Assembly: GCA_002449845.1 (NCBI GenBank)
Contig: DJXW01000019.1
Location: forward strand, 21,174-85,173
DNA: 64,000 nt
Origin: Prevotella sp. UBA6994
Lineage (GTDB): Bacteria > Bacteroidota > Bacteroidia > Bacteroidales > Bacteroidaceae
Direction of reading: 5' to 3'
Under the pieces are notes generated by a model, which was given only the letters and a program-made list of their open reading frames with translations, was not told where the DNA came from and ran no database searches. Shown here piece after piece: positions 4,001-59,490 of the stretch. The translations under genes and the position numbers were made by a program. How positions within the stretch are numbered: the stretch's first letter is position 1; every line of letters begins with the position of its first letter.

Positions 4001-4194
4001 CCAGTGACCTTGGCCGTGGTGTGCAACCGGTCGAGCCCGTCGGAGAGAATGTCGATGGTGTATTCCGGCTGGCTGCGGCCGATGGTCTGCAGGGCGTCGA
4101 GCAACGGCACCTCGCGAAAGGTCTGTGCCACAGCGCTGCCGAGCGGGAGCAGCGACACGGCGAGCAGGAGGAGGAGGATTCTTGGTTGCTTCAT
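1012..4194 (-). CDS. Outer-membrane beta-barrel protein with N-terminal STN-like signalling domain, carboxypeptidase-regulatory-like domain and plug-like region (TonB-dependent-transducer-like), copy 2
   Basis: The track ORF 1012..4578 is trimmed to the ATG at 4192-4194 (MKQPRILLLLLAVSLLPLGSAVAQ signal peptide). This ATG overlaps the upstream stop as ATGA. Motifs: STN-like LLDALQTIGRSQPEYTIDILSDGL...GLPVKVKVRGRHIAV, and plug-like VKFYYRGDTLVYDATAFQLPEGSMLDDLIRQLPGVTL. It is a paralog of 4191..7394. Confidence 0.85.
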   Translation of the reverse strand: MKQPRILLLLLAVSLLPLGSAVAQTFREVPLLDALQTIGRSQPEYTIDILSDGLDRLHTTAKVTGLSAPDAVKRLCRGLPVKVKVRGRHIAVQMKKRQVPKVQTVDLSGDVEDSFLKRPLTKAKVSVLTADSVVIADSLQIIYFLNGDNRITKAHFGTKVRTGRDYLVRAQLKGYDDVWKRVSIGRQATEDIDLGTLQMRKTRNLNLDEVVVTATRVKFYYRGDTLVYDATAFQLPEGSMLDDLIRQLPGVTLNDQGEIFVNGRKVDELLLGSRSFFGGNKKVLMENLPYYTVKNLKVYEKQTDKSEALGYDVEPRRYVMDVNLKDEYSQGYIANVEAAASPTPTLPSREGAPSERAYLGRGFLLGFTDKLRLTVLANANNVNETRHAGQTGQWSPARMPRSIITTRSAASELSYHSEGDKLKETLRGEYTSTTDAQTMNQHQERFVGTLTPTAFTESFSKMGNRRWSLHNSLTLKLPTYMNIEADFNHTRRNGATHSAFQETTDTLSIAQRTVGISRGTKWAASLDAQGSVRVGRRNQHLDFYTHLDLSNDEGEQGEVFKVTKYQGNKVTGYQGDKVTKYQSNKVTTAPADVETRNANSLYSRNAAALLSLGFGKELGHNLHFGISDLMAYLRIHSRDNLYHPASTVGPTGEVEPADPLLPSEIDAIAATLDPANSYESCATTQQNDMTFSLNKTGHYTHSIAHMKVNYDRWRLELQVPMHFYRLRYRRGSLDTLARQTAIFPNPSFRYRNVWKDSRRDLQVRISYRQTAAEILNRISYRDDSRPLVVKLGNPDLKPSAQTNLSISYYDGKEVAGGMYHASTSFSYHHRDIAQSLAYDPATGVSTFKPMNVSGAYDAHANFSTDHSIGTKRYWTWHADAGIDWNHAKDHAMLAGMAASQVNTVNTLSLNSGGNIRFHRKTLNIRAVGYINWRHSDGKMYDFTTLRALDYHYGLEATYTTPALWGTKIGGLTLAADATMYGRRYGSTELNTNDFIVNASLSQPFLNGKLIARLEAFDLLHQLSDTQYVINAMGRTVTCYRSLPHYVMLHLVFHWTRQGKH
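2431..2514 (-). repeat. In-frame 24-bp tandem repeat (about 3.5 copies) inside the barrel gene
   Basis: Minus strand reads aaagtaacaaagtaccaaggtaac / aaagtaacagggtaccaaggtgac / aaagtaacaaagtatcaaagtaac / aaggtaacaacg, giving KVTKYQGN KVTGYQGD KVTKYQSN KVTT. Confidence 0.9.
3138..3175. repeat. GC-rich hairpin mini-element (CCCTCCC..GGGAGGG, GAGCCCC..GGGGCTC) inserted in frame
   Basis: CCCTCCC 3143-3149 pairs with GGGAGGG 3155-3161, and GAGCCCC 3138-3144 pairs with GGGGCTC 3169-3175. It encodes ...SPTPTLPSREGAPSE..., a segment absent at the aligned position of the paralog (which has GGGTGD there). Confidence 0.75.
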
Positions 4195-8845: not shown

Positions 8846-10264
8846 ATGAAGAAGAATTACCCAGTATTACTTTTGTCGTTGTTCGTGATGTTGGCAGTTT
8901 CCGTGAAGGCTTATTCTGCCGACAAGAAAGTGGCTTATCCAGGAGGAAAACACTGGCTTGTGCGTGTGTCGCTTGCCGACAAGAAAGGAACACCATACCG
9001 TTTGAGCAAGCCAGAACGGTTCTTGAGTGCGAGAGCCATTGAAAGACGCAAACGACAAGGAATCTCTGTAGATTCCACCGACCTGCCCATTACGCCGGCA
9101 TATATAGAACAAATCCGCAAGCAAGGTTTTGAAGTGGTTTGCCAAAGCAAGTGGAACAACACTGTATTGGTTAAAAATGTTTATGAAGATGGCTTAGAAA
9201 AACTGAAACAATTGCCATTCGTGAAAGACGCAAAGAATGTCTTTCATGCTCCCGACTCCTTTAACGTGCCAAAACGAAGTGAGTTAGAAAACATTCCATA
9301 CAAGCAAGACAGCGTGGAAAATAAGGAACACGGACTTGCCCACCGTCAGATAGACATGATGAATGGCATACGTTTGCACGAGGCAGGATTCCGTGGAAAG
9401 GGTATGTTGATAGCCATTCTCGATGGCGGCTTCATGAATGTGGACAGTATCCCTGCATTCACGACGGTGAACATCATCGGTACGAAAGACTTCTCTACTC
9501 CCAAGTCTTCAAATATCTATTCAGAATTAGACCACGGCACGATGGTACTTTCTACCATGGCAACCAATCTCCCACATATATATATAGGTACGGCTCCGGA
9601 GGCTTCCTATTTGTTGATACGGACAGAAGCTGGAGCAACGGAGAGCTTGGCAGAGGAAGATTTCTGGGCAGCTGGAGCTGAATATGCCGACTCTATGGGC
9701 GTGGACATCATCAATTCGTCATTGGGCTACACCACGTATGACGACAAGTCAACCAGTCATGTCTATGCTGACTTAGACGGAAACACGTCGTTTGTTTCTC
9801 GTACAGCTTCACGATTGGCAGCCAAGGGAATCGTCTTGACGAACAGTGCAGGCAATTCGGGTAGTGGCACTTGGAAGAAAATAGGTGTTCCAGCCGATGC
9901 GAGAGATATATTGGCGGTAGGAGCCATCACCAAGAACAAGGTCAATACAGTGTTTAGTTCTGTGGGACCATCGGCAGACGGTAGGGTGAAACCCGATATC
10001 ATGGCTATAGGCAATGCCTGTTGGCTCATCAAAGGTAACGGAAAGATAGGCACAGCCAACGGAACCTCATTCGCCTCGCCATTGGCTTGTGGGATGGTGG
10101 CTTGCTTATGGCAAGCCTTACCCAATAAGACCGCCTTCGAAATCATGGACTTGGTGCGTCGTTCGGCTCATCAATACCATCAGCCTGACAATATTTTCGG
10201 TTATGGAATACCCGACTTCTGGAAAGCATATCAAAACGGAGGACAAGGGATAGCTAATGAATGA
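8846..10264 (+). CDS. S8 family serine peptidase (subtilase) with signal peptide
   Basis: Catalytic triad contexts IAILDGGF (Asp), LDHGTMV (His) and NGTSFASPLACG (Ser). N-terminal signal MKKNYPVLLLSLFVMLAVSVKAYS. Confidence 0.9.
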   Translation: MKKNYPVLLLSLFVMLAVSVKAYSADKKVAYPGGKHWLVRVSLADKKGTPYRLSKPERFLSARAIERRKRQGISVDSTDLPITPAYIEQIRKQGFEVVCQSKWNNTVLVKNVYEDGLEKLKQLPFVKDAKNVFHAPDSFNVPKRSELENIPYKQDSVENKEHGLAHRQIDMMNGIRLHEAGFRGKGMLIAILDGGFMNVDSIPAFTTVNIIGTKDFSTPKSSNIYSELDHGTMVLSTMATNLPHIYIGTAPEASYLLIRTEAGATESLAEEDFWAAGAEYADSMGVDIINSSLGYTTYDDKSTSHVYADLDGNTSFVSRTASRLAAKGIVLTNSAGNSGSGTWKKIGVPADARDILAVGAITKNKVNTVFSSVGPSADGRVKPDIMAIGNACWLIKGNGKIGTANGTSFASPLACGMVACLWQALPNKTAFEIMDLVRRSAHQYHQPDNIFGYGIPDFWKAYQNGGQGIANE

Positions 10265-11591
10265 CTTGTTTTGGCATAGTGAGGAGAAGACTCATCGCTC
10301 AACCCTGACCTTGTATGAGTTGAATCAGTTGGTGAGAGAGACATTGCAGATAGAAATGCCTGATGAGTATTGGGTGGAGGCGGAACTGTCTGAGGTGCGT
10401 GAAGTGCGTGGACATTGTTATATGGAACTCATTCAGAAAGACCTTTTCAACCATACGCCCATTGCGCGCGCCTCTGCAAAATGCTGGAAAAACACGTGGA
10501 TGAAGATAGGTCCTAAGTTTGAGCACGTCACTCGTCAGCCTTTGCACGTTGGTCTTCAAGTTTTGCTCAAGGTACGTGCCGACTTTCACGAAGCATACGG
10601 TTTCTCTTGGATTATCTCAGATATTGACCCAACTTTCACGTTGGGAGACATGGCGAAGAAACGACAGGAAATCATTCGGCAACTCAAGGAAGAGGGTGTC
10701 TATGATTTGCAAAAAGAGTTGCAATTGCCCCTTTTCACTCAGCGCATAGCCGTCATTTCCAGTGAGAATGCGGCAGGATACGGCGACTTCTGCAACCAAT
10801 TGGCCAACAATGACGATAACTTGAAGTTTTATATACGTCTGTTTCCTGCCATCATGCAAGGAGAACAAGTAGAACAAAGCATTATCTCTGCGCTTAATCA
10901 AATCAATGAACGGTTAGACGATTTCGATGTGGTGGTAATCATCAGAGGTGGAGGTGCAACGGCTGATTTGTCAGGATTCGATACGTTAAGCTTGGCCGAA
11001 AACGTTGCCAATTTCCCATTGCCCATCATCACAGGTATCGGACACGAGCGTGATGAGAGCGTGTTGGATATGATTTCCCATACTCGCGTAAAGACTCCCA
11101 CCGCCGCCGCCAGTTTCTTGATAGAGCATTTATCGCACGTATATGAGAGGGTGGAGAACTGCAGGTCAGAGATTTCGCATCTGGTAAGCAGGAGGATGGA
11201 AGTGGAGAAGATGCGATTGGAGAAATTGGCTGAGAAGATTCCCGTGCTCTTCTCTTTGGTGAAATCCAGGCAAGAAATGTTTCTGGAGAAATGCAATAGT
11301 AGAATCATTTATGCGGTAAGAGAGATATTGACCACGCAAACATATCGTTTAGAGCAATTAAACATGAAGTTTGCGCCTCTCAAAGACCATGTTTTCACTC
11401 GCGAAAGACACCGTTTGGAATTGTTGTCTCATCGCATAGAGGCATTAGACCCTGCCCTGTTGCTCAAACGAGGATATAGTATCACGTTGCACAATGGCAA
11501 GTCGGTGCGCAATCCCGACGAACTATGCAATGGAGATGAGATAGAGACGAGAGTGGAGAAGGGAAAAGTGAAATCGGTAGTGATTAAATAA
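10257..11591 (+). CDS. xseA: Exodeoxyribonuclease VII large subunit
   Basis: 444 aa. OB-fold N-terminus (YWVEAELSEVREVRGHCYMELIQK), catalytic core IAVISSENAAGYGDF...IIRGGGATADL...TGIGHERD. It is followed by xseB. Confidence 0.95.
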   Translation: MNDLFWHSEEKTHRSTLTLYELNQLVRETLQIEMPDEYWVEAELSEVREVRGHCYMELIQKDLFNHTPIARASAKCWKNTWMKIGPKFEHVTRQPLHVGLQVLLKVRADFHEAYGFSWIISDIDPTFTLGDMAKKRQEIIRQLKEEGVYDLQKELQLPLFTQRIAVISSENAAGYGDFCNQLANNDDNLKFYIRLFPAIMQGEQVEQSIISALNQINERLDDFDVVVIIRGGGATADLSGFDTLSLAENVANFPLPIITGIGHERDESVLDMISHTRVKTPTAAASFLIEHLSHVYERVENCRSEISHLVSRRMEVEKMRLEKLAEKIPVLFSLVKSRQEMFLEKCNSRIIYAVREILTTQTYRLEQLNMKFAPLKDHVFTRERHRLELLSHRIEALDPALLLKRGYSITLHNGKSVRNPDELCNGDEIETRVEKGKVKSVVIK

Positions 11592-25122: not shown

Positions 25123-25180
25123 CTCGGAGTTCTCAGAGTTCTCAGAGTCCTCAGAGTTCTCGGAGTTCTCAGAGTTCTCC
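25123..25180. repeat. 9-bp tandem repeat (CTCRGAGTY, 6 full copies) filling the purA-hisS spacer
   Basis: ctcggagtt ctcagagtt ctcagagtc ctcagagtt ctcggagtt ctcagagtt, read directly from the sequence. Confidence 0.95.
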
Positions 25181-26575: not shown

Positions 26576-27565
26576 ATGAAAAAGATAAGTGCGTTTTTTG
26601 TCGTGACGTTATTTTGCATGTTGCTTACGTCATCAACAAAGCAAATCACCATATTCATCATTGGTGATTCTACTGCTGCGAATAAATCGAATTACAAGAC
26701 CAATCCTGAAAGGGGATGGGGTATGGTGTTGCAAGGGTTTTATGATGCACGTATTCTGGTGGATAATCATGCTGTCAACGGACAGTCATCAAAGAGTTTT
26801 ATCGATGATGGACGATGGAAGAAGGTGATTGACAAGGTAAAGCCAGGCGACTACGTGTTTATCCAATTTGGGCACAATGACGAGAAACCCAATCCCAAAC
26901 GTCATACAGACCCTGGCTCAACGTTCGATGATAATCTGCGGAAGTTCTGTCGTGAAACCATGGCAAAGGGTGGACATCCTGTGTTGTTCAATGCCGTGGT
27001 TCGTAGGAACTTCATGCGCAAGGTTGACTCAACGGTTGAGGATGAATCGTTGCGTAGCGTGAAATATGGCGATGAGGAAGTCAATAGCGACACGTTGATA
27101 GATACGCATGGGGCTTATCTCTTCCCACCTAAGTATATTGCCAAGGAGTTAGGTGTGCCTTTCGTTGATGCAAACCGTGTGACTCACGATATCGAACAGG
27201 GAATGGGCATTGAGGGTTCTCGTAAATTGCACATGTGGCTGAAGCCTGGAGAGGTAGAGAGCATTCCAGATGGACGCAAAGACAATACGCATTATAATAT
27301 ATATGGTGCAAGGGTGGTAGCGGAGGCTTTGGCTAAGGCAATCGCTCAGGAAGTTCCTGCCTTGAAAAAATATATCATCCATTATGATTACGTGGTATCT
27401 GAGAAGGGAAAAGGCAATTATCTCACGTTGCAAGATGCCGTGAATGCTGCTCCTATGGGCAAGAAAACCAAGATATTGATATTAGACGGCACATGGGAGA
27501 AACCAGTGATTCCACAAGGAAAGAAAATTCGATTCAAGACTTTCCCAGAGGCGAAGGTTAAATAG
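26576..27565 (+). CDS. SGNH/GDSL hydrolase (rhamnogalacturonan acetylesterase-like) with a short pectinesterase-like C-terminal tail
   Basis: Start at the ATG at 26576 (MKKISAFFVVTLFCMLL). Motifs: IFIIGDSTA (block I), GWG, QFGHNDE (block III), DNTHYN (block V). Confidence 0.85.
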   Translation: MKKISAFFVVTLFCMLLTSSTKQITIFIIGDSTAANKSNYKTNPERGWGMVLQGFYDARILVDNHAVNGQSSKSFIDDGRWKKVIDKVKPGDYVFIQFGHNDEKPNPKRHTDPGSTFDDNLRKFCRETMAKGGHPVLFNAVVRRNFMRKVDSTVEDESLRSVKYGDEEVNSDTLIDTHGAYLFPPKYIAKELGVPFVDANRVTHDIEQGMGIEGSRKLHMWLKPGEVESIPDGRKDNTHYNIYGARVVAEALAKAIAQEVPALKKYIIHYDYVVSEKGKGNYLTLQDAVNAAPMGKKTKILILDGTWEKPVIPQGKKIRFKTFPEAKVK

Positions 27566-27606
27566 ATTGAGAATTGAAGATTGATAATTGAAGATTGAAG
27601 ATTTGG
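27565..27606. repeat. Heptanucleotide tandem array (RATTGAN x6)
   Basis: gattgag aattgaa gattgat aattgaa gattgaa gatttgg, beginning at the last base of the esterase stop codon. Confidence 0.9.
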
Positions 27607-36650: not shown

Positions 36651-36720
36651 TCTCTTGTCTCTAGCTTCTTGCCTCTAGCTTCTTGCCTCTTGCTTCTTGC
36701 TTCTTATTATCTTGCTTCTA
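36651..36720. repeat. Heptanucleotide tandem array (CTTCTTG/CCTCTWG family, about 10 units)
   Basis: tctcttg tctctag cttcttg cctctag cttcttg cctcttg cttcttg cttctta ... Confidence 0.9.
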
Positions 36721-36752
36721 AATATGTCTTATAAATTCGCAATTTACCCCTT

Positions 36753-37086
36753 AAAATACGGGCATTTTTTCAACTGAGTTGGAACTCGGTCGAAAAAATG
36801 CCTGTATTTAGGTGGTTTGATAAACTATTCATTATCAGTCTTTTAGGAATTTTTGAGGTTTGTAATTTGAGTAAAAATTCATGTTTTTGCTTCAAAAAAG
36901 GCACTTTTTGGGCTTTCGTAACATATATAGTTAGCACTCGTAACATACATAGTTACGCTCATAACTCATATAGTTACGTGCGTAACATATTATGTTACGA
37001 TGAAAAACATGGTTTTTTGCCCGTTTTAACGCATTTTTCTGCTCTTACAATTCTATTTGGCAAGAAACTTCAAACATGTTTTTGTC
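36753..37086 (+). repeat. Noncoding repeat element, copy A (homologous to 51634-51946)
   Basis: Hand alignment to copy B. Shared parts are AAAATACGGGCATTTTTTCAA..GAGTT.GAACTC..AAAAATGC, TTCAAAAA.G..ACTTTTT, the GTAAC-N7-GTTAC palindrome array, TGAAAAACA, GCTCT..TTCT..GGCA..AAA.TTCAAACA..TTTTTGTC. ORFs are not conserved between copies. Confidence 0.85.
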
Positions 37087-37120: not shown

Positions 37121-37176
37121 TCTCTTGCTTCATGCCTCCTGCTTCTTACCTCTTGCTTCTTACCTCTTGCTTCTCA
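37121..37176. repeat. Heptanucleotide tandem array (CTTCTTA/CCTCTTG family, 8 units) abutting the feoB stop codon
   Basis: tctcttg cttcatg cctcctg cttctta cctcttg cttctta cctcttg cttctca. Confidence 0.9.
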
Positions 37177-39812: not shown

Positions 39813-39946
39813 GGATGTTTTAGTGTTGAATGTTTAGTGTTGAGTGTTTAGTGTTGAATGTTGAGTGTTTAGTGTTGAATGTTTAGTGTTTAGTGTTGAG
39901 TGTTTAGTGTTGAGTGTTGAATGTTGAATGTTTAGTGTTGAGCGTT
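39813..39946. repeat. Heptanucleotide tandem array (KARTGTT, about 19 units) between feoAB and uvrA
   Basis: ggatgtt tagtgtt gaatgtt tagtgtt gagtgtt ... tagtgtt gagcgtt. The last two units encode the final uvrA residues (NAQH) and the stop codon. Confidence 0.95.
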
Positions 39947-42772
39947 TAGTTCTTCCTTCAAGAAACGAGGGGTGTAACCCTTATCAGATAGAGCTACCTC
40001 TTCTGGTGTGCCCTTGGAAAGAAGTGTACCACCGTTTCGTCCTCCCTCTGGTCCCATGTCGATGATGTAATCAGCCAGTTTGATGACATCTAAATTGTGC
40101 TCGATGATGACCACGGTGTTGCCCTTGTCAACCAGTCGCTGGAGTACAGCCATCAGGTTCTTGATGTCATCAAAGTGCAGTCCTGTGGTAGGTTCGTCAA
40201 GGATATAGAGCGTCTTGCCTGTGTCCTTCTTCGACAGTTCGGTGGCGAGCTTGACACGTTGGCTTTCGCCACCGCTCAGCGTGGTAGAGGGTTGTCCCAG
40301 TTTGATGTATCCCAATCCTACGTCTTGAATCGTCTTGATCTTATGCAAGATGTGAGGCACGTTCTCGAAAAACTCCACGGCTTGGTTGATGGTCATGTCA
40401 AGTACATCTGCAATCGACTTACCCTTAAACCTTACCTCCAAGGTCTCACGGTTGTAACGCTTGCCGTGACACACTTCGCATGGCACCATTACATCGGGAA
40501 GGAAATTCATCTCGATGGTCTTGTAGCCGTTGCCGCTACAACTCTCACACCTGCCTCCCTTTACGTTGAACGAGAATCGTCCAGGCTTGTAACCTCTAAT
40601 CTTGGCTTCGGGCAGGTTGACGAACATCGAGCGAATGTCGCTGAATACACCCGTGTATGTGGCTGGATTGGAACGGGGCGTTCTGCCCAACGGACTCTGG
40701 TCCACGTTGACCACCTTGTCTATATATTCTATGCCTTCGATGCTGTCGTAAGGCATGGGTTTCTTCAACGAACGATAGAACTTCTGTGAGAGAATGGGTT
40801 GTAGCGTTTCGTTCACCAATGTTGACTTACCAGAGCCGGAAACGCCCGTAACTACAATGAGCTTGCCTAACGGAAACTCTACGTCCACGTTTTTCAGGTT
40901 GTTTCCCCTGGCACCATGAATCCAGATAGACTTCCCATTGCCTTTGCGTCGTTCTTGAGGAACCTCTATCTTCTCTTTGCCATTGAGAAACCTTGCGGTC
41001 AGTGTGTTGATGTCGTTGTTCATGATGTCTTCAGGCTTTCCCTGAAACACAACCTCACCACCTTTTCTTCCAGCCCGTGGTCCGATATCAACGAGGTAAT
41101 CGGAATGAAGCATCATGTCTTTATCGTGCTCTACCACGATGACCGTGTTGCCCATGTCACGCAATTGCTTGAGTGAGGAGATGAGACGTTGGTTGTCGCG
41201 TTGGTGCAATCCGATGGATGGTTCGTCTAATATATACAGCACATTGACCAATTGGGAACCGATTTGCGTAGCCAATCGTATGCGTTGGCTCTCACCACCC
41301 GACAAACTGGCAGACTGGCGATTGAGGGTGAGATAGTCTAATCCCACCTCTAACAGGAACTCCACGCGAGAGCGCAATTCCTTGACAATCTCATGGGCAA
41401 TCTTCTGTTGCATGGGTTCCATGTGCTCCTCTACATGCATCAGCCAATCGCGAAGGTCAGTGATGTCGAGGTTGGCAACCTCAGAGATGTTCTTGTCCCA
41501 TATACGATAGGAGAGAGATTCTCTTTTCAACCTCGCCCCATGACATTCGGGACAGGTGCAGACAGCCAAGAATTGATCTGCCCATTTCTGCCCGGCAGAA
41601 GAATCGTCGTTGTCCATCACGTTGCGGAGATACTTGATCACTCCGTCGAAGGCAATGAAATAGTCGCTTGAGGTATGTACCAATTCCTTGTTGATACGCA
41701 CGTTCTCCAAGGAGCCATACAAAATCTCATCCATTGCCTCTTGGGGAATGTCCTTCACGGGAGTATGTAAGTCGCATTCGTACTTTTGGAGGATAGCGTC
41801 TATTTGCCAGAATATCATCTGGTTCTTGTATCTTCCCAAAGGGATGATGGCACCTTTGTGAATGCTTTGCTTGCTGTCAGGGATGACCTTCTCCATGTCT
41901 ATCTCATTGATGACACCCAATCCCTTGCATTTGGGACAAGCCCCTTCGGGAGAGTTGAACGAGAAGATGTTTGGGGCAGGCTCACCGTAGGAAAGACCAG
42001 TGATGGGATCCATGAGGCGTTTGGAGAAGTTGCGCACACTTTCCGTGTCCTTATCCATGATCATGATGATTCCATCACCTTGTTTCATTGCCACTTGAAC
42101 GCTTTTCTTCAGCCGCTCATCGTCCTTGCCTTGTACCTTTAACTTATCGATAACCACTTCGATGTTGTGGTTTTTGTAACGGTCAACCTTCATTCCCCTG
42201 GTAATCTCTACCACCTGTCCGTCAACACGCATATATAAGTAGCCTTTTCTGCGCATACTCTCGAAGAGCTCACGGTAATGTCCTTTGCGTTGCCTCACCA
42301 AAGGAGCGAGAATGAAGATGGGCTTGTCGATATAATGGGTGAGAATCATTTCCAATACCTGTTCCTCAGTGTATTTCACCATTTTCTCACCCGTCATGTA
42401 ACTGTAAGCCGTACCAGCACGTGCGTAGAGCAAGCGCAGATAGTCGTAGATTTCTGTCGTGGTGCCTACGGTGGAGCGTGGGTTTTTGTTGGTAGTCTTC
42501 TGCTCGATGCTGATGACAGGACTCAACCCCGTAATCTTATCCACGTCGGGTCGTTGCAATCCTCCTAAGAAGTTGCGGGCGTATGCAGAGAATGTCTCGA
42601 TGTATCTTCGTTGACCTTCGGCAAAGATGGTGTCGAAAGCCAATGATGACTTACCCGAACCAGATAGTCCGGTGATGACAGTCAGGGAATTGCGCGGAAT
42701 CTCTACGTCGATGTTCTTGAGGTTATGAACGCGTGCTCCCCAAACATTAATCTTCTCGTCTTCTCTTTGCAT
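39932..42772 (-). CDS. uvrA: Excinuclease ABC subunit A
   Basis: Start at the ATG at 42772 ([28 protein letters not shown]). Two ABC modules ([28 protein letters not shown] twice) and zinc modules (CPKCKG, CPECHG, CESCSG..CEVCHG). Confidence 0.95.
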
Positions 42773-43618: not shown

Positions 43619-43691
43619 TACACCCTTAGGGATTCGAACCCTAGACCCACTGATTAAGAGTCAGTTGCTCTACCAACTGAGCTAAGGGTGC
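43619..43691 (-). tRNA. tRNA-Lys (anticodon CTT)
   Basis: Reverse complement GCACCCTTAGCTCAGTTGGTAGAGCAACTGACTCTTAATCAGTGGGTCTAGGGTTCGAATCCCTAAGGGTGTA folds as a cloverleaf with anticodon loop CT-CTT-AA and T-loop GGTTCGAATCC. A TACCTTTG box lies upstream. Confidence 0.93.
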
Positions 43692-43803: not shown

Positions 43804-46800
43804 TCATTGTTCTAAGATGGAAAATTCAGCACCTGTAGCGAAGTCTTGACCATCTTGTGAACTCAAGGCATTGAATCTGAGATAGCGGGCTTTCACGGGT
43901 TGAGAGAAGAGAATTTTCTTCTCTTTCTTGTCGTTGGCAAACGTTCCTTGGCAAATAGGGTATCCCCATGTCTTACCATCGTTGCTCACTTGAATGCTGT
44001 ATTCCTTGATGTTTCCGTTGCTACTGTCTTGACGTGGAAGATACGCAAATCCTTTCAACATCTTCGTCGTTCCGCAATCAAAGTCCACCCAGTGGGGATA
44101 GTTGGCTACCGTTACGCTCCACATCGTATGCCAGTAGGTGTTGGGGTTTCCGTCCACCAAGTGTTCGGCATTGCCTTCGCCACTCTCTACGCTGGAGGCA
44201 AAAGATACAGTCACAGGGATATGGTCGATGCGTTCAAATTCCTTGCTGTTCACTATCCACTCACAGCCTTGCTCGTATGCCTTCACCGTACCGCCATTGC
44301 GCAGGTTAAACGTTCCTGTGTAACGTTGGGGTTTGGAAGAGCGTTTCTTGTTCTTGGCATTTGTCCCGTCATTGACAAGGAAATAAATGGGCTGATGATT
44401 TTCCTTCGTGGAAGAAATGGCAACGTTGCCTTCTGCGTCTCGCTCAATGATGAGTGGAGCTGGTCCTGCTGGTTGCACCATTGATGGCTTGTTGGTGGCT
44501 GGTCGGATGATGAAGGCAAAGGTGTGAGGCGTTGCCTTGACGCGGTCGTATTCTAACGGAGCACCTTGTCCGCAACTGTTTCCACCCAGACCTGTGATGG
44601 CGATGTCGAGATGAAGCGTGTTGTGATTGCTGATGGGCAGCTCATGCGGATGTTTGGCTTGAGCCAGTTCTTGCGCAGTCCAAGGCAGGATGGAGAACGA
44701 CATCTTGTCTTTGGGCATCAGCAATAAGCCCTTGCCTTGGTCGTTTGTCAACTGGCAGTAACGGGTGTCTTGGTGATTGCCCATGTCTTGTGGCTTGGGG
44801 AAGTTTTCAAACTCTTTCTCCACCTTATTATTATATATACGTATGAACTGACCGCTCTTTCTGTCGGGATAGTTGTCGATAGGACCACGACCGTAGTAGG
44901 TGAGGTTGTTCAACGACTTGGGCAAGCGGATGCTGTAACCCAACCGTGGCAATACCACCGTGGGATTGTTGGACGTGATGGCTGATTGTACCTCAATGGT
45001 TCCATCAGCATAAACGGTATAGATAATGTTGTTTTGGAAACAGAAGTCGTTTCCGTCTGCTTGTGATTGGGTGGTAAAGGCAAGGCTCACCGAACCGTCT
45101 TCGTTTACATGCTTGTTCCATGACAATACTTTCTGTTGCAGACGGTCCAGACCGTGCTGATACCACGATGTCTGTCCCCAGTTGTCGTTGTTGACGGGCG
45201 CACGGAAAGCATCGAGCAGTAATCCATCATGACCGTCAATCATTTCCTCATTGCCATATTGCAAACTGTATATAGTGCCTTTTTTCAAATCGAACGAAAC
45301 ATGGAATTGGTTTCCGTCAGACAAGTTGAGCAGGTCGTTTGTTGGCTCAGACAGTTGCAAGGTTCCTTTCATGGAGAGGGCAGGGCGTTGTTCAGCCTGT
45401 TTTACCATCAATTGTTCGTCTGCCTGTACGAACCCGCTCTTTGCCCAAGGTGTATCGTGTTTCTGCCTAAACTCAATGGTGAGGAAATACTCACGGTGGT
45501 CGAGAGCTTGGGGATTGAGACCATCTATGCTGACCGTCTTATGCTTGCGGGGTGCAATGCTTCCCACTTCAATCTTTCCTTCCTTGACCTTCTCGCCATC
45601 AGCTTCCAATGTGTAGAAACAATCGTAAGAACTCAAGTCGTCGGTATAGTAGTTCTTGTTGAAGATGTCGATGGTCCCAGTCTTCTCGTCGTTCCATTTA
45701 ATGCCAATGTTTTGGTACACTTTCTTCACCTCGTAATATTGTGGCTTAGGTTCCATATCGCCAAAGATGATTCCGTTCATCACAAACTCCCGATCATTCG
45801 GCGTGTCTCCGAAATCACCGCCGTAGGCCAAGTATTTGATGGTTGAATTACGATGGTTGATGGGGGAAGTTGTCGCTAATGGCGAGGATGAAGTTGCGAG
45901 GGAAGATGTACTTCCTTCCTTCGTCCTTTCGTTCTGACTTCCTCCATCGTAATTCCTCCTTCCTCCATAATTATAAAGGCTCTGGTCAATCCAGTCCCAG
46001 ATGGCTCCGCCACAGAAGAAGTTGGTAGATTCGATAGCCTCCCAATAGTCGATGAGGTTTCCTACTGCATTTCCCATGGAGTGAGCGTATTCCGAGATGT
46101 GGAAGGGATATTTGATGTTCATGTTGCCTTTCACAGCCGAACGCACCCAGTTCACGGATGGGTATTGGTTACTGCCCATGTCAACGATGTCGTTGTTGCG
46201 CTCATATTGCACGGGACGACTGGTGTCGAATGCCTTTACCGCAGCGTAGGATGCCTTGAAGTTGTCGCCAGGACCAGCCTCGTTTCCTAAACTCCAGATG
46301 GCAATACAGGGGTCGTTCACACGTGAGTGTGCCAACTCCATCATCCTGGCGATGTGTGCGGGTCTCCATTCTATCGGGTGGGAGAGAGAAGCCTCACCGT
46401 AGTAGTATTCATGACTTTCCAAGTTTGCCTCAGCCTCTAACCAAATACCGTATTTGTTGCAGAGGTAATAGAAATATGGGTCGTAAGAGTAATGCGAGGT
46501 ACGCACGTGGTTGATATTGGCTCGTTTCATCATCATCACTTCCTCGCGCATCTGCTCACGGGTAATGGCGTGACCAGTGGCAGGGTTCGTTTCGTGGCGG
46601 TTTACACCTTTCAACTTCAATGGCTTCCCGTTGATGAGGAAATACCTGCCTGCCAATCCAAACTCGTCTTCAGAAGCAGGCACGTCCTTGATTTCCACTG
46701 TGCGGAAACCTACTTGTGTGGAAACTACTTCCTTCACGCGACCTTTCTTGTCTTTGAGCTTGGCTACGAGCACGTAAAGGTTGGGTTCCTCGCTGGTCCA

Positions 46801-47880
46801 TGTCTTGACGTTGTTGACGGTGATAGATGCCGTTCCGATGCAAGTGGTGTTGGGAGCCATTCCACGGTCAGAGCCCGTATCCTTTTCTGTCATGATTTGG
46901 CAATCTACGAGTTCGTTGTCATCAGCATAGAGTTTGTTGGCGTATAATTCATATTCTACCTTATATCCCTTGACTGTTTTGGTGCTTAGGTTCTCCAAGG
47001 TGGTTTCTATCTTCATGTTACCATCCGCTTGCGCATGAACCACGAGGTCTTGGATGTGTACCTTCGGTGTGGCATAAACGTTCACCGAACGGAAGATACC
47101 TGGCAGACGGAACATATCTTGTGCTTCGAGGAACGAACCGTCGGAATTGCGATATACTTCCACGCTGATGGAATTGTCGCCTATGTGTGCAAAGCGGGTG
47201 ATGTCGAAACGTGCCGCATCACGGGAGTTCTTGGAAAATCCCACATATTGTCCGTTCACCCACAGGTAGAAGAATGAATCCACACCGTCAAACTCCACGA
47301 ACAATTCTTCTCCCTTCCACGTCTTGGGAATGGTGAAGGTTCGACGATAAGAGCCCACCTCATTGCGGTATTTGTATGTGGTCCAGTTGGTGGGAGGGGT
47401 GCGCATCACGCCTTCTCGCCAATCGTCTTTCTTCACTTGGTGGTAGAAGATGACGGGTTGGTTCACGTAGATAGGTGTGCCGTATTTTTGGCTACCGTCT
47501 TGCTGTATGCCTATGATGTTCCAGTTGGAGGGGACGATGACATCGTCCCAGACGGAACAGTCGAAGGTTGGGAGATAGAAGTCTTTAGGGCGCTCGTCGG
47601 GGGTCTTGGCGAAATGGAATTTCCATGTGCCGTTGAGACTCATGCGATGCGAGCTGTACTCTGGCAATACGTGGCGAGCCTCTTCTACGTTAGCGAACGA
47701 GGCAAACCATGCACGGGGTTGCAGCTTATTGTAACCCAACAGCATGGGCGATTGCCATTCTTCTCCCGTGGGAGCCTTGTCGTTACCATATTGAAAACCT
47801 TCCAGAGGTTTATTGTCGGCATGAGCGACAAGAGTGAAGCACCACAATAAGGATGCTATGAATAGTTTGGTCTTTGTCAT
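43804..47880 (-). CDS. GH2 beta-galactosidase with C-terminal F5/8 type C (discoidin) domain
   Basis: Signal peptide. IAIWSLGNEAG (acid/base), HISEYAHSMGN (nucleophile), GGAIWDWIDQSL, AYGGDFGDTPND. C-terminal AEHLVDGNPNTYWHTMW is discoidin-like. Confidence 0.93.
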   Translation of the reverse strand: MTKTKLFIASLLWCFTLVAHADNKPLEGFQYGNDKAPTGEEWQSPMLLGYNKLQPRAWFASFANVEEARHVLPEYSSHRMSLNGTWKFHFAKTPDERPKDFYLPTFDCSVWDDVIVPSNWNIIGIQQDGSQKYGTPIYVNQPVIFYHQVKKDDWREGVMRTPPTNWTTYKYRNEVGSYRRTFTIPKTWKGEELFVEFDGVDSFFYLWVNGQYVGFSKNSRDAARFDITRFAHIGDNSISVEVYRNSDGSFLEAQDMFRLPGIFRSVNVYATPKVHIQDLVVHAQADGNMKIETTLENLSTKTVKGYKVEYELYANKLYADDNELVDCQIMTEKDTGSDRGMAPNTTCIGTASITVNNVKTWTSEEPNLYVLVAKLKDKKGRVKEVVSTQVGFRTVEIKDVPASEDEFGLAGRYFLINGKPLKLKGVNRHETNPATGHAITREQMREEVMMMKRANINHVRTSHYSYDPYFYYLCNKYGIWLEAEANLESHEYYYGEASLSHPIEWRPAHIARMMELAHSRVNDPCIAIWSLGNEAGPGDNFKASYAAVKAFDTSRPVQYERNNDIVDMGSNQYPSVNWVRSAVKGNMNIKYPFHISEYAHSMGNAVGNLIDYWEAIESTNFFCGGAIWDWIDQSLYNYGGRRNYDGGSQNERTKEGSTSSLATSSSPLATTSPINHRNSTIKYLAYGGDFGDTPNDREFVMNGIIFGDMEPKPQYYEVKKVYQNIGIKWNDEKTGTIDIFNKNYYTDDLSSYDCFYTLEADGEKVKEGKIEVGSIAPRKHKTVSIDGLNPQALDHREYFLTIEFRQKHDTPWAKSGFVQADEQLMVKQAEQRPALSMKGTLQLSEPTNDLLNLSDGNQFHVSFDLKKGTIYSLQYGNEEMIDGHDGLLLDAFRAPVNNDNWGQTSWYQHGLDRLQQKVLSWNKHVNEDGSVSLAFTTQSQADGNDFCFQNNIIYTVYADGTIEVQSAITSNNPTVVLPRLGYSIRLPKSLNNLTYYGRGPIDNYPDRKSGQFIRIYNNKVEKEFENFPKPQDMGNHQDTRYCQLTNDQGKGLLLMPKDKMSFSILPWTAQELAQAKHPHELPISNHNTLHLDIAITGLGGNSCGQGAPLEYDRVKATPHTFAFIIRPATNKPSMVQPAGPAPLIIERDAEGNVAISSTKENHQPIYFLVNDGTNAKNKKRSSKPQRYTGTFNLRNGGTVKAYEQGCEWIVNSKEFERIDHIPVTVSFASSVESGEGNAEHLVDGNPNTYWHTMWSVTVANYPHWVDFDCGTTKMLKGFAYLPRQDSSNGNIKEYSIQVSNDGKTWGYPICQGTFANDKKEKKILFSQPVKARYLRFNALSSQDGQDFATGAEFSILEQ
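45845..45955. repeat. 111-bp palindromic repeat element inserted in frame in the GH2 gene
   Basis: Perfect 12-bp terminal inverted repeats GAATTACGATGG (45845-45856) and CCATCGTAATTC (45944-45955). Central hairpin GGAAG-atgta-CTTCC. Blocks are shared with 48451-48630. Confidence 0.85.
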
Positions 47881-48113: not shown

Positions 48114-48869
48114 TTAGTTTTCTGCTAACTGTTTTTTCCATTTATAATATCCGGCAATGGCGATGATGACATAAAGCCCATAGAGTGAAGCCTTGAACGG
48201 AATGTCTTTGTAGAAATACAACACGCACGTTACTACATCAACGACAATCCAGATAAGCCATTGCTCCAAATACTTACGCGCCAACGCCCAAATGCCCACC
48301 ATGCTCAATGCCGTGGTAAAGCTGTCGGCGATGGGTACGCGTGAGTCGGTGTAAGTAACCAATAACCACCAGATGGTTGCCCAAATGGCAAGTGTGCCTA
48401 TCGTCCACGGTAAGATATACTTTCGCTCAAAGTGAGTGCATTTGAAGGATGAATTAGGATGGTCGATGGTTGAAGTTGTCGCTGAAGGCGAGGGTTGATG
48501 TTCGATGGTTGAATTACGATGTTCGATGGTTGAATTTGGAAGTGTTTCGCTTGTCAGCGAGGACGAAGTTGTGAGGGAAGATGTACTTCCATCCTGCGGC
48601 TCAGCCGCACCCCTTCCTCCTTCGTAATTCTTCCTTCCTCCTTCAAAAAACTTCCACATGATGAAGCCATAGAAGGACATTCCGAGATAGTAGAACTCCA
48701 TGCCGCAGTCGGCATAGAGTCCTTTTTGGTAACAGAGTACGATTCCCAAGGATTCCATCAGGATTCCCACCAACCACAACCAGATGCTTGCCTTGTATTC
48801 CAGGATGATATAGACAAGTCCTAAGACTGTGGTGGTGATGTCAAGCCAATATTCTCGTAGAAAGTCCAT
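48114..48869 (-). CDS. pnuT: PnuC-family transporter, thiamine-type (PnuT-like), carrying a repeat-encoded loop insertion
   Basis: PnuC-like TM pattern (GLVYIILEYKASIWLWLVGIL..., WIVVDVVTCVLYFYKD). It lies downstream of a TPP-riboswitch-controlled TonB-dependent receptor. Confidence 0.8.
   Translation of the reverse strand: MDFLREYWLDITTTVLGLVYIILEYKASIWLWLVGILMESLGIVLCYQKGLYADCGMEFYYLGMSFYGFIMWKFFEGGRKNYEGGRGAAEPQDGSTSSLTTSSSLTSETLPNSTIEHRNSTIEHQPSPSATTSTIDHPNSSFKCTHFERKYILPWTIGTLAIWATIWWLLVTYTDSRVPIADSFTTALSMVGIWALARKYLEQWLIWIVVDVVTCVLYFYKDIPFKASLYGLYVIIAIAGYYKWKKQLAEN
48451..48630. repeat. 180-bp copy of the same palindromic element, in frame in pnuT
   Basis: Ends GAATTAGGATGG / CCTTCGTAATTC (10 of 12 complementary). 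Shared blocks GAAGTTGTCGCTGAAGGCGAGG and GAAGTTGTGAGGGAAGATGTACTTCC. The internal 21-bp unit gttcgatggttgaattacgat is repeated. Confidence 0.85.
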
Positions 48870-48880
48870 TGTTTGTTATC

Positions 48881-51310
48881 TTAGAATCTTAGCGTCAGAC
48901 TACTCATACATGTGAAGCCTGACATGGGGATAAATCCTATCTGGTAATAGCGGTTGTCGTTGGTGTGACCATAGCTCTCGGCAATGGCTGAGTACACCCA
49001 ACCGCTGGCAGCGTAGCGTCGGCTGAAGATGTTGTTGAAGTTCATCCCTACCGTTATCTCCTTGATGCCCAGTGCCTTCTTCACCTTCGATGTATAACTG
49101 AGGTTGAGGTTTGAGGTGCTGTAGCAAGGTAATGAGCGGTCAGCATTCTCCGTGTTGTCAAGGTATTGGCGGCTCACGTAGTTGGTGTGCCATACGGCTT
49201 GCCAACCTTGGTAATGCAGGTTGATGAATCCGTTGATAATCACAGAGGGCGAGAATGCAAGAGTAGAGTTGTCATAATGGAACTCACGCAGCTCGTCTCC
49301 GTTGCCGTCGCAATGATATTTGGCTGCATCGGTATTGCCTTCCCAGTCGTCCCAGTCTTCTACGAACTCATGAAAATCCTTGATTTTGTTTTTGCTCAAT
49401 GTGGCATTTCCTTCGATGGTGAGCCAACGGGTGATGTTCCAGCCAGCCGTCAACTCTATACCCATGCGGTAAGACTTGTCGATGTTGGTAGTCAACTTTT
49501 CACCGATGTCGCTCACGGCTCCGGTCTGCACGAATTGGTCTTTGTAATTCATGTAATAGAGGTTGGCGCCAACCCTGAAAGCAGAGCTCTCAAACTGGTA
49601 ACCTGCCTCGAAGTCGAGCAGTTGCTCTGCCTTGGGAGCGGGATAGTTGCTGTTGTCGGTGAAGTTGTTGCGTTCTGGCTCACGATGGCTCCATGCTACC
49701 GAACCATAGACCAGGTGGTTGCCCGAACGATAGCTGATACCAGCCTTGGGATTGAAGAAATCGTATTTCTTGTCGATGTTTAGGAATTGCTTGCTGTAAG
49801 TGCCATCGTTGTTGTCTTTAAACTTGTCGTTGTAGCCATCGGTCTTATATCCCACGTGGCGATATTGCACGTCGCCAAACATGCTCAAGTGGCTGTTGAT
49901 ATAATAGGTGGCTTTGAGGAAAGCAGAACCGTCCAACTTCTTCGCATCTGAATCGTAATACTGATAGTCGCCGTTGGCAAGCAGGTACTTGCTCAATGCT
50001 GCGTTCGATACGTATGTGAGGTAACCGAAATGGTTGCCTGAGAAATTCTGCAAAGACAATCCGCCGATGATATCCCATGCGTCTTTTTTGTAATTGATGT
50101 TCCAAATCAGTCCGTAGGTATCTTGTTTCAGACCTTTCTTTCGCACGAAGTCGCTTTTCTTCACCGTTGAACCGTCGGGAGCAGTATAGTTGCTCAGTCC
50201 AAACTTCTTCAACTTATTGTCGTATCTGAACTCATTGTAATATCCATAGCCGTGTGTGTAGTGCAGAGATGCGGTGGTTGACCAATAGGGGTTGATGTCC
50301 CAGACAGCAGAGAGAATGTTACGGTTCTGCCAGAAATTGTCAGTGGCTTTGTCCCAATAATTACCATCGCTCATCTTGTATCGGTTGGCAATGTAGTTGC
50401 CGTTGGCATCTTTGGCGGGGTTGCCGTCGTTGTCGTAAGCCATTGTCTCATAGAGGGTGTTGTATTTGCCAAATCCCGCATTGTACAGGTCTTTATAGGT
50501 CTTGATGCCTGTCTTTGCCCCGTATGTACCATCCATGAGCGACAGGTCGTTGTCGCCTGCGGTAACACCGTTCCATGCCTGTCCCGTTCTCTCGAAATTA
50601 CCGAAGTGCTTGTAACGAATGGTGAGTTTGTTGTTTACGAAACTCAATCCTCCGTAATACGAACCCGAGCGACCTTTGGTACCGTGGATGAACCCGTCGG
50701 TGTTGGTCTCGTGGTACGCTCCGTCTAAAATCCAGTGATTGCCAAACAATCCCGTGGAGAAAGCTCCTCCGAGGTTATAGGTGTTGAACGAACCGTATGA
50801 GCCAGACAACTCACCCCATGCCTCGTCGGTTGGTGCTTTAGATGTCAGTGAGAGGGCTCCGCCAAATGCTCCGTCACCGTTGGTAGATGTTCCCACGCCA
50901 CGTTGAATCTGTACGCTACCCAACAATGAGCCATAACTGTTCATGTTTGCCCAGAACACACATTGGTCTTCGGGCGAGTTGAGAGGCACACCGTCTAACG
51001 TGACGTTGATGCGTGAGTCGCCGGCACCACGAATACGCATATACGTGGTACCCGTTCCTAATCCGTTCTCACTCCATGCCAAGATGCCTGGAGTCTGTGA
51101 GAAGAGGAATGGCAGTTCCTTACCCGTCTTTGAGAATGCGTCTAATTCCTTTTTCTTGATGTTGGCAATGGCAAACGGCGCGTCTTTCTGCGCACGCACA
51201 CCCTTTACCACCACCTCCTGCAATTGTTCCAATCGCAGGGAGTCAACTTCTTGAGCCGTGGCAATTGTGGATAATCCCACTGCGATACAAGTTAAAAATG
51301 TTTTTTTCAT
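48881..51310 (-). CDS. TonB-dependent receptor (thiamine-associated, OMthi-like)
   Basis: Signal peptide, plug (TYMRIRGAGDSRINVTLDGVPLNSPEDQ), long barrel, and C-terminal ...SSLTLRF. A TPP riboswitch lies in the leader. Confidence 0.9.
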   Translation of the reverse strand: MKKTFLTCIAVGLSTIATAQEVDSLRLEQLQEVVVKGVRAQKDAPFAIANIKKKELDAFSKTGKELPFLFSQTPGILAWSENGLGTGTTYMRIRGAGDSRINVTLDGVPLNSPEDQCVFWANMNSYGSLLGSVQIQRGVGTSTNGDGAFGGALSLTSKAPTDEAWGELSGSYGSFNTYNLGGAFSTGLFGNHWILDGAYHETNTDGFIHGTKGRSGSYYGGLSFVNNKLTIRYKHFGNFERTGQAWNGVTAGDNDLSLMDGTYGAKTGIKTYKDLYNAGFGKYNTLYETMAYDNDGNPAKDANGNYIANRYKMSDGNYWDKATDNFWQNRNILSAVWDINPYWSTTASLHYTHGYGYYNEFRYDNKLKKFGLSNYTAPDGSTVKKSDFVRKKGLKQDTYGLIWNINYKKDAWDIIGGLSLQNFSGNHFGYLTYVSNAALSKYLLANGDYQYYDSDAKKLDGSAFLKATYYINSHLSMFGDVQYRHVGYKTDGYNDKFKDNNDGTYSKQFLNIDKKYDFFNPKAGISYRSGNHLVYGSVAWSHREPERNNFTDNSNYPAPKAEQLLDFEAGYQFESSAFRVGANLYYMNYKDQFVQTGAVSDIGEKLTTNIDKSYRMGIELTAGWNITRWLTIEGNATLSKNKIKDFHEFVEDWDDWEGNTDAAKYHCDGNGDELREFHYDNSTLAFSPSVIINGFINLHYQGWQAVWHTNYVSRQYLDNTENADRSLPCYSTSNLNLSYTSKVKKALGIKEITVGMNFNNIFSRRYAASGWVYSAIAESYGHTNDNRYYQIGFIPMSGFTCMSSLTLRF

Positions 51311-51379
51311 GAAACCTTATTTTATAAGATTCGCAAGATGGCTTGCGAAAACTAATGATACAATAAGGGGGAGAGAAAG

Positions 51380-51465
51380 AATAAATTCCTACGCAGGCAT
51401 TACCCTGTTCAGGTTTGAGGGTCTAATCTCAGCCCGCCAACAAGCGAGCACCCCTTAACTTACCG
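51380..51465 (-). promoter_or_regulatory. TPP (THI-box) riboswitch
   Basis: Minus strand: GGGGTGCTCGCTTGTTGGCGGGCTGAGATTAGACCCTCAAACCTGAACAGGGTAATGCCTGCGTAGGAA. It carries the conserved CUGAGA, ACCUGA, UAAUGCC and GCGUAGGAA blocks. The downstream hairpin TTCGCAAG-ccat-CTTGCGAA (51330-51349) is a possible expression platform. Confidence 0.88.
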
Positions 51466-51488: not shown

Positions 51489-51633
51489 CTACCTTTTTTT
51501 GAAATGTACAAGAAATCTTAAAAAAACATGTATATATTACCTGAAGGAATGTTGGGAAAGAGGGGATTTCTTGTTGTCATGATGACGAATGCCTTTCTTC
51601 TGTTTTGTCTTGAAATTTCTGAATTTAGGTGCC

Positions 51634-51946
51634 AAAATACGGGCATTTTTTCAATCGAGTTAGAACTCAGTAGGAAAAATGCTCATTTTTCAGAGTTTTC
51701 ACATGTCGTTAAGAATCAACGACTTACGGTTTTGTGGTGCGCATTGGTGTTTCAAAAAGAGTACTTTTTTATCGCAAAAAGCATGATTTTGGGCATTCAT
51801 AACATATATAGTTAGCACCCGTAACATATATAGTTACGGTCATAACGATACATGTTGGCGTGAAAAACACCATATTTTGACCCTCTCAACTCATTTTTTG
51901 GCTCTCCCATTTCTGGAAGGCACAAAAATTCAAACAACTTTTTGTC
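51634..51946 (+). repeat. Noncoding repeat element, copy B (homologous to 36753-37086)
   Basis: See copy A. Hairpin at 51642-51682 and palindrome array at 51799-51857. Confidence 0.85.
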
Positions 51947-59407: not shown

Positions 59408-59484
59408 AGAAGCAAGAAGCAGGAAGCAGGAAGCAAGAGATTAGAGGTGAGGGGTGAGGGGTGAGAGGTGAGGAGTGAGTGGTG
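59408..59484. repeat. Heptanucleotide tandem array (AGAAGCA family switching to AGGGGTG family, 11 units)
   Basis: agaagca agaagca ggaagca ggaagca agagatt agaggtg aggggtg aggggtg agaggtg aggagtg agtggtg. The first family is the reverse complement of the arrays at 36651 and 37121. Confidence 0.95.
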
Positions 59485-59490
59485 AGATAT

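Follow-up and report, generated by a model that had tools for sequence, protein, structure and literature searches.

In a 64,000-nucleotide (nt) stretch of Prevotella sp. UBA6994 DNA (contig DJXW01000019.1, positions 21,174 to 85,173; the whole stretch is referred to here as the window), a gene for a GH2 beta-galactosidase carries a palindromic segment in frame within its coding region. Does this segment belong to a family of repeats that enter genes, or is it an ordinary loop of one protein lineage? A sequence-only reading of the locus had likened it to the Rickettsia palindromic elements (RPEs). Our analysis supports that comparison: related copies are found in frame in unrelated genes and in intergenic DNA, and orthologues with empty sites exist. 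We conclude that the segment is probably one copy of a dispersed, non-coding family of palindromic repeats in rumen Prevotella and related genomes, and that the family resembles RPEs in behavior. The distribution of the copies suggests that the family is selfish and mobile.

The GH2 gene carries a palindromic element in frame

The GH2 gene and the parts of its element (copy 1) are as follows.

43804-47880, minus strand: host gene 1, GH2 beta-galactosidase, 1358 amino acids (aa), open reading frame (ORF) intact
45835-45966, minus strand: element copy 1, 132 nt, 44 codons, in frame; boundaries accurate to about 4 nt on either side
45937-45966, minus strand: 5' arm in the coding sense, GGAGGAA GGAGGAA TTACGAT GGAGGAA GT; purine-rich, 7-nt period; holds the 12-nt repeat at 45944-45955
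45901-45915, minus strand: central palindrome, GGAAG-TACAT-CTTCC, around a GTAC that is invariant in all nine aligned copies
45873-45885, minus strand: small hairpin H3, TCGC-CATTA-GCGA
45835-45870, minus strand: 3' arm in the coding sense, ACTTCCCCCATCAACCATCGTAATTCAACCATCAAA; pyrimidine-rich, 7-nt period; holds the 12-nt repeat at 45845-45856

Copy 1 lies between WDWIDQSLYNY and YLAYGGDFG, in place of an ancestral 6-codon loop, TKDGxR. DNA alignment with an empty-site orthologue (L007) showed that it substitutes for 18 nt of that loop, a net gain of 38 codons. This agrees with the earlier estimate of about 38 extra residues: the window protein has 64 residues from WDWIDQ to YGGDFG, compared with 26 in 109 of 120 orthologues. 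The perfect 12-bp inverted repeat that had been described is present, as GAATTACGATGG at 45845-45856 and its exact complement CCATCGTAATTC at 45944-45955. If up to one mismatch is allowed, the 12-mer is found at five places in the window, each within one of two elements (expected number, 0.40); none of 100 shuffled sequences reached five occurrences. The central hairpin GGAAG-atgta-CTTCC was also located where it had been placed, at 45901-45915. Folded as single-stranded DNA, copy 1 was more stable than all 200 shuffled versions (z = -3.4). The coding strand is stop-free, as had been claimed; among the six frames only that of GH2 is open, and it encodes the peptide GGRRNYDGGSQNERTKEGSTSSLATSSSPLATTSPINHRNSTIK. 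The proposed unit of 111 bp correctly gives the distance covered by the 12-bp repeats, outer end to outer end, but the element itself measures about 132 nt, because empty-site orthologues and other family members place it at approximately 45835-45966.

The GH2 product contains GH2 N, catalytic, LacZ_4, Bgal_small_N, and F5/8 type C domains. Its NEAG and SEYAH blocks, whose counterparts in Escherichia coli LacZ hold the catalytic glutamates, did not vary across 36 orthologues, and the gene therefore looks functional from its sequence.

A homologous element in pnuT and the modular architecture of the family

The second element in the window (copy 2) lies in the gene upstream.

48114-48869, minus strand: host gene 2 (pnuT), PnuC-family transporter, 251 aa; Pfam NMN_transporter
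48441-48644, minus strand: element copy 2, 204 nt (68 codons), lying in frame in the loop that follows the third transmembrane helix
48595-48609, minus strand: small hairpin H1 of copy 2, TGCGGC-TGA-GCCGCA
48576-48590, minus strand: central palindrome of copy 2, GGAAG-TACAT-CTTCC

The pnuT gene is 230 nt upstream of the GH2 gene on the same strand. The copy within it is homologous and in frame, as first read, but extends over 48441-48644, which is wider than the 48451-48630 originally given. Copies 1 and 2 share 112 of 129 aligned bases and differ by several indels. In copy 2, the 3' half (H3 hairpin plus arm) is present twice, and positions 48497-48536 hold a perfect 21-nt tandem repeat. None of 200 shuffled sequences was as stable as copy 2 when folded as single-stranded DNA (z = -4.7).

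Nine copies, placed in a common orientation, could be aligned along their whole length. The order of modules is purine-rich arm, H1, GTAC palindrome, H3, and pyrimidine-rich arm, and the composite element is about 130 to 220 nt long. Arms of 19 to 26 nt, imperfectly complementary (77 to 84%), are found in every copy; they consist of imperfect 7-nt units, and the autocorrelation at lag 7 is the maximum in most of them (0.45 to 0.78). H1 takes the form TGCGGC/GCCGCA or TGCGC/GCGCA, and H3, present in eight of the nine family members, reads TCGCC/GGCGA or TCGCT/AGCGA; both pairs of forms differ by compensatory changes. Around the invariant GTAC, the center reads GAAGTACTTC, GATGTACATC, or the offset form GGAAG-TACAT-CTTCC. 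Since the stems change on both sides between copies, their symmetry is either preserved or restored. An element is palindromic throughout, so that only the relative order of H1 and H3 reveals which way it points. Intergenic copies face in both directions, and in-gene copies in one.

An RNAalifold consensus of the nine-copy alignment paired an arm with the center and was not meaningful; a table of hairpins for each copy was used instead. Rfam gave no match on L022 or on L026 (two of the contigs that we analyzed) at an E value of ≤1, and no match to the element in the window at the gathering score. We rejected an intein or intron, given this lack of Rfam matches and a low-complexity peptide of 44 to 70 residues, which should be far shorter than an intein.

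Further copies occur in a methylase gene and between genes

Copies of the family were found in pnuT, in a SpoU/TrmH methylase gene, and in intergenic DNA in both orientations. Those outside the window were located with a profile built solely from the GH2 and pnuT copies.

L025:10351-10500: in-frame copy in the SpoU/TrmH gene; E = 4.5e-26 (GH2 plus pnuT profile)
L025:9858-9984: intergenic copy, from the SufE stop codon to the SpoU start codon; E = 1e-19
L025:9311-9433: intergenic copy upstream of SufE; E = 2.7e-8
L022:777-917: solo intergenic copy; E = 2e-18
L022, end of the array described below: E = 2.2e-19 (GH2 plus pnuT profile)

A phmmer search with four peptide variants joined end to end returned four strain variants of the pnuT protein and one other protein, P0125, a 220-aa SpoU/TrmH methylase containing EDGRKNYEGGSNASQYISNKEGSTSSFNPSHSPTGETLQPSTINHPTS. 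Low-complexity candidates saturated this search, which did not recover even the GH2 proteins; its count of hosts is therefore a lower bound. P0125 is encoded on the rumen contig L025, scaffold_898 of ERZ28654344, where the profile search identified three elements within 1.2 kb. The in-frame L025 copy and the intergenic copy next to SpoU are inverted relative to each other, about 350 nt apart, and identical at 107 of 109 positions, which indicates a recent copying event. The members of this inverted pair (9858-9995 and 10346-10495) lie on either side of a segment with the SpoU/TrmH start codon and the gene's first 115 codons, and recombination between them would flip the 5' part of the gene.

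A scan of metagenomes with a 26-nt arm pattern yielded one contig, Ga0310694_10055580, here called L022. In addition to its solo copy, L022 has an intergenic array at 3389-3703, made of four tandem half-element units of 77 to 78 nt that are 93 to 98% identical, each consisting of an arm and the H3 hairpin TCGCC-ATA-GGCGA. After the array, at the end of the contig, come the center of an element and the beginning of the opposite arm. Altogether, about eight distinct sites were found, three of them in frame within genes.

Other searches gave no further members. A four-sequence peptide profile retrieved nothing at an E value of ≤10 from 5.8 billion proteins, a search that is underpowered because the profile is short and of low complexity. 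The pnuT peptide had no matches in a representative protein library, as expected, since inserts are hidden inside clusters formed at 50% identity. Scans of viral contigs and BLAST searches of plasmids and phages gave chance matches or none.

In-gene copies share one open frame and lie in variable loops

In GH2, PnuT, and SpoU/TrmH, the element has the same orientation and is read in the same frame, the sole one that is stop-free. The three hosts thus have in common a peptide of the form GGR(R/K)NY(D/E)GGS...KEGSTSS.... Intergenic copies have stops in all frames. The peptide adds 44 to 70 residues to its host, is rich in S, T, G, and N, and is probably disordered.

Each host could be compared with a known structure. 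The GH2 insert lies between conserved blocks that are separated by 9 residues in Bacteroides thetaiotaomicron beta-galactosidase (3dec and 3bga), and the SpoU/TrmH insert between blocks separated by 8 residues in Thermus thermophilus TrmH (1v2x). The stretch after the third transmembrane helix is 36 residues long in the PnuC structure 4qtn, versus 90 in our query. As judged from these alignments, the inserts are at fold-compatible loop positions of variable length. An AlphaFold2 model of the GH2 catalytic domain had a mean pLDDT of 44.6 and was unusable for assessing surface exposure.

Empty sites, decay, and length change among relatives

Comparison of GH2 orthologues had been suggested as a way of finding empty sites, and 109 of the 120 lack the segment, having the short loop YNY-TKDGxR-YLAYGGDFG instead. 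The sequence-only reading would have fallen had every orthologue in the genus carried a conserved segment and had no more copies existed; neither proved to be the case. Across orthologues the loop varies from 5 to 49 residues. In a 98% identical strain (L004), the GH2 copy is 15 nt longer than that of the window; the extra sequence is a GCGGC-AAA-GCCGC hairpin (H1), which the pnuT copy also has. Hence, the window GH2 copy is a derivative that has lost 15 nt in frame. L005, a syntenic relative with 79% identity, retains a 45-nt remnant at the GH2 site, GTAGGAAGGAGGAATTTTGAAGGAGGAAGT-ACATCATCCATCAAA (nhmmer E = 2.7e-4), and most strains of a third syntenic lineage have a comparable miniature form, EERKNSEGGNTSIK. 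In one strain of the L005 lineage (P0127) the remnant is gone, and the loop reads NNKIK. These remnants indicate that the GH2 insertion probably predates the syntenic lineages, some of which have since lost it or retain it in decayed form. In the syntenic relatives, the pnuT product is 204 to 217 aa long and has nothing detectably related to the element.

Between the window and L004, the elements differ at 22 of 340 sites and the rest of the host genes at 124 of 4,493, a 2.4-fold faster divergence of the elements (P = 7e-4, Fisher's test). The sole internal indels in this comparison are of 15 nt and lie within the elements; the 3' end of pnuT also differs by 6 nt. Among strain variants of the pnuT copy, lengths differ by blocks of 15, 18, and 21 nt. 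Faster divergence together with in-frame indels is the pattern expected if selection acts solely on the frame.

Candidate decayed remnants in the pnuT loops of L005 and L028 and in the GH2 loop of L028 were dropped after shuffle tests (p = 0.18 to 0.95). The ancestral TKDGTR loop, considered as a target homology or remnant because of microhomology between AAGGATGGTACA and the element center, was dropped on the same tests and the same range of values. For L041, the corresponding test for a decayed remnant gave a p value of 0.077.

Other short-period repeats and the neighborhood of the two genes

Two strains of one species have GH2 genes that are 97% identical in nucleotide sequence, with their sole indel in the same loop (L042:11870-11986 and L028:11870-11944). 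Relative to L028, the L042 palindrome at this site has three additional GAAGAAT units in its left arm and three additional ATTCTTC units in its right arm, in frame, and its fold energy is -28.7 versus -6.6 kcal/mol. Symmetric in-frame growth of this kind is hard to obtain by slippage of one arm and suggests that one arm was copied from the other or that a longer copy was substituted. Elsewhere the GH2 loop holds CACCCAA heptamer arrays that are read as SPNTQH (L027:11843-11947 and L030:2267-2383) or, in L040, an array of the octamer AGGAGTTC. By this comparison of sequences, short-period repeats have repeatedly landed or grown in the GH2 loop of Prevotella-like lineages.

In the window, positions 2433-2515 hold about 10 copies of the octamer TTGTTACT, in frame in a gene for an outer-membrane beta-barrel (ORF 1012-4578, minus strand; the true start is probably the methionine of MKQPRILLL). 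The array encodes KVTKYQGN-KVTGYQGD-KVTKYQSN-KVTT and is another non-triplet repeat tolerated in a gene. Many tandem arrays with periods of 7 to 9 nt also lie between genes, at 39819-39950, 36652-36705, 37122-37174, 59408-59487, 27564-27603, and 25123-25179. Their units include the 7-nt sequences AGTGTTG (18 copies), CTCTTGC, AGAAGCA, GGTGAGG, and AGATTGA and the 9-nt sequence CTCAGAGTT; they often begin directly after a stop codon or precede a terminator. The heptamer arrays look like element arms, a resemblance only. A second dispersed repeat, of about 360 nt, is present at 36725-37086 and 51606-51946 (70 to 82% identity between copies). It includes a hairpin of 27 nt and a tandem set of four 21-nt units, all with GTAAC...GTTAC. 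Its first copy is bordered on both sides by direct CTCTTGC heptamer arrays, and its second copy lies just upstream of a thiamine pyrophosphate (TPP) riboswitch. We take these repeats as signs that this group of genomes is prone to short-period repeats; their likeness alone implies no common mechanism.

The features next to the two host genes are as follows.

51368-51465, minus strand: TPP riboswitch (Rfam RF00059, 60.4 bits), upstream of the TonB-dependent receptor gene and pnuT
48881-51310: TonB-dependent receptor gene, after the riboswitch and preceding the PnuC-family gene
43619-43691, minus strand: tRNA gene (Rfam, 72.5 bits), directly downstream of the GH2 gene

A TPP riboswitch and a TonB-dependent receptor gene ahead of the PnuC-family gene fit a thiamine-uptake operon and the name pnuT. 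The source names of close relatives of the window are Prevotella sp., and the samples are ruminant gut metagenomes. Contig JAFRUF010000005.1 of assembly GCA_017441865.1 contains the locus.

Weighing the explanations

Several observations weigh against a dispersed family. The window holds only two copies, in adjacent genes, and no further copy was found in its 64 kb or in the approximately 350 kb of related DNA that we fetched (with some redundancy) outside L022 and L025. The peptide search, which was not exhaustive, added only one host gene. A scan of 185,579 species-representative genomes with an 18-nt core gave 13 matches in unrelated taxa, a chance level, and the scan of metagenomes gave a single contig. 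Because other family members differ at the positions concerned, the 18-nt core and 26-nt arm patterns were too specific, and these scans thus neither support nor exclude abundance. The copies cluster locally, as local duplication or gene conversion might produce without any genome-wide mobility. No target-site duplication was recognizable by reading the GH2, pnuT, SpoU, and intergenic junctions, where the fuzzy boundaries leave room for short ones; the GH2 copy replaces its 18 nt of loop instead of duplicating a target. Reading of the junctions likewise identified no transposase or parent insertion sequence, the source genomes not having been searched for one.

We consider it unlikely that the segment is simply a low-complexity loop of one lineage, enlarged in place by replication slippage and template switching, with the GH2 and pnuT copies made alike by local gene conversion. 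In favor of such a loop, the two window copies lie 2.6 kb apart on the same strand, with no other copy in 64 kb; arms lengthen in situ between strains, and tandem amplification of half-elements occurs; and the GH2 loop of other species holds unrelated heptamer and octamer arrays. Such a loop would not, however, have full-length homologues with the same module order in an unrelated gene and in the intergenic DNA of two other contigs. These homologues were excluded from the profile that found them, and they occur in both orientations. The mismatches and several indels between copies 1 and 2 argue that the likeness of the window copies is not that of a recent conversion tract. An artefact of sequencing or assembly, or a pseudogene, is extremely improbable, and no point was found in favor of either. 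The identical 1358-aa product was called on several contigs, one independent Logan assembly of which was read, and a 98% identical product with the same insert is present on at least 24 contigs (ENA and NCBI); the insert is thus found on independent assemblies from all three sources. Moreover, the ORF is intact, and the catalytic blocks are invariant in the 36 orthologues.

The element could also be a selected functional module: a phase-variation switch, a structured regulatory element in mRNA or DNA, or an adaptive surface peptide on proteins that acquire nutrients. Preservation of the hairpin modules through compensatory changes would fit this, as would the 7-nt unit length, which can shift the reading frame; the hosts in the window are nutrient-uptake genes (GH2 and PnuT), and an outer-membrane barrel gene has the in-frame octamer array at 2433-2515. 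We nevertheless regard selection for a function as quite improbable. The third host is a cytoplasmic RNA methylase, the elements diverge faster than their host genes, the peptides are of low complexity and variable in length among strains, and the remnant has been wholly lost in some strains of a sister lineage (P0127). A switch would be expected to have a perfect tandem non-triplet array; the arms are imperfect repeats and poor slippers. All length variants seen (15, 18, 21, or 42 nt) are in frame, in look-ups of exact proteins that could not reveal frameshifted alleles.

If the segment does belong to a dispersed palindromic family, new copies may be made at the DNA level by a process that depends on the hairpin and arm structure. 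Template switching or recombination between arms, often over a short range, would be the likeliest routes, rather than cut-and-paste transposition. The lack of a target-site duplication and the replacement of ancestral codons favor such copying over transposition, and the local clustering, the near-identical inverted pair on L025, and the tandem half-elements point the same way. Arms might lengthen by slippage of whole units, with the change then transferred to the opposite arm. In-gene survivors would be those copies that land in the one open frame of tolerant loops, with the peptide presumably a tolerated passenger rather than a functional domain. A broader and, at present, doubtful idea is that palindromes in rumen Prevotella are built and spread by a general process that needs no transposase: arrays of 7- to 9-nt units with complementary arms would expand symmetrically, gain hairpin modules, and be copied to near and distant sites, giving in-frame loop insertions in GH2, PnuT, TrmH, and an outer-membrane barrel.

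Relationship to known palindromic repeats

According to PMC10969869, which summarizes Ogata et al. (2000), RPE-1 to RPE-10 are hairpin-forming repeats of approximately 100 to 150 bp that lie between genes and in frame within unrelated genes, and 44 RPE insertions have been reported in R. conorii. As RPEs are described there, both families consist of hairpin-forming repeats found between genes and inside unrelated housekeeping or metabolic genes; their in-gene copies are in frame, add a peptide without breaking the ORF, and occupy fold-compatible sites; and neither family is known to have a transposase or clear target-site duplication. The hosts differ, being Alphaproteobacteria for RPEs and Bacteroidota here. 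The Prevotella family is therefore an analogue by behavior and not a member, and no sequence relationship is expected. Unlike RPEs, the Prevotella element has arms with 7-nt periodicity, changes length by whole units, forms tandem half-elements, encodes a low-complexity peptide rich in S, T, G, and N, and lacks an open frame in its intergenic copies.

BrickBuilt, from Porphyromonas gingivalis, belongs to the same phylum and is likewise small and non-autonomous, with inverted ends and an internal tandem repeat of variable number. In contrast to our family, it is strictly intergenic as reported, with a 23-nt unit and no reported in-frame copies, and its terminal inverted repeats are similar to the ones found in known P. 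gingivalis insertion sequences. REP/BIME repeats are associated with a REP-associated tyrosine transposase (RAYT). They resemble the Prevotella family in having small GC-rich hairpins, in being dispersed in both orientations and combining into larger structures, and in lying in some cases inside genes; the internal Prevotella hairpins TGCGC..GCGCA and TCGCC..GGCGA are similar to them in size. REPs are imperfect GC-rich palindromes of 20 to 40 nt, tagged with GTAG or CGTC and sometimes intragenic (PMC3733652), whereas the Prevotella unit is a composite of 130 to 220 nt with arms that are AT- or purine-rich heptamer arrays. GTAG adjoins the arm in some Prevotella-family copies (L022 and L005), but not consistently. 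ERIC and other miniature inverted-repeat transposable elements also have occasional in-frame copies of an otherwise intergenic palindromic repeat (PMC10969869). Those cases are sporadic, in Proteobacteria and other groups, while here three of about eight sites are in genes and the same permissive loops have been struck repeatedly.

The sequence-only reading knew of no equivalent in Bacteroidota. Our literature searches agreed with it, finding no in-frame palindromic element described in Prevotella or Bacteroidota, an absence that is no proof. What appears to be new, from the sequences compared, is the combination of RPE-like behavior with a heptamer-armed, modular, unit-expanding architecture in a new phylum.

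For 25 years, in-frame palindromic repeats have been seen chiefly as a peculiarity of Rickettsia, which are obligately intracellular and hard to manipulate, and how such repeats enter genes and what they do to proteins is an open question. An independent system in Prevotella would make both the route of entry and the effect on proteins testable. Prevotella are abundant and often culturable, and thousands of strain-level metagenomic assemblies exist. At single sites, comparisons of strains already show that elements are gained, decay, and are lost, that they change in length by whole units, and that arms grow symmetrically. The inserts lengthen carbohydrate-active enzymes and transporters in rumen catalogues and make their sizes more varied, and they can mislead orthologue clustering and structure prediction. 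If the general process of palindrome building and spreading is true, it would be an unrecognized way in which mutation varies the length of proteins in a dominant genus of the gut and rumen, and possibly a source of phase variation there.

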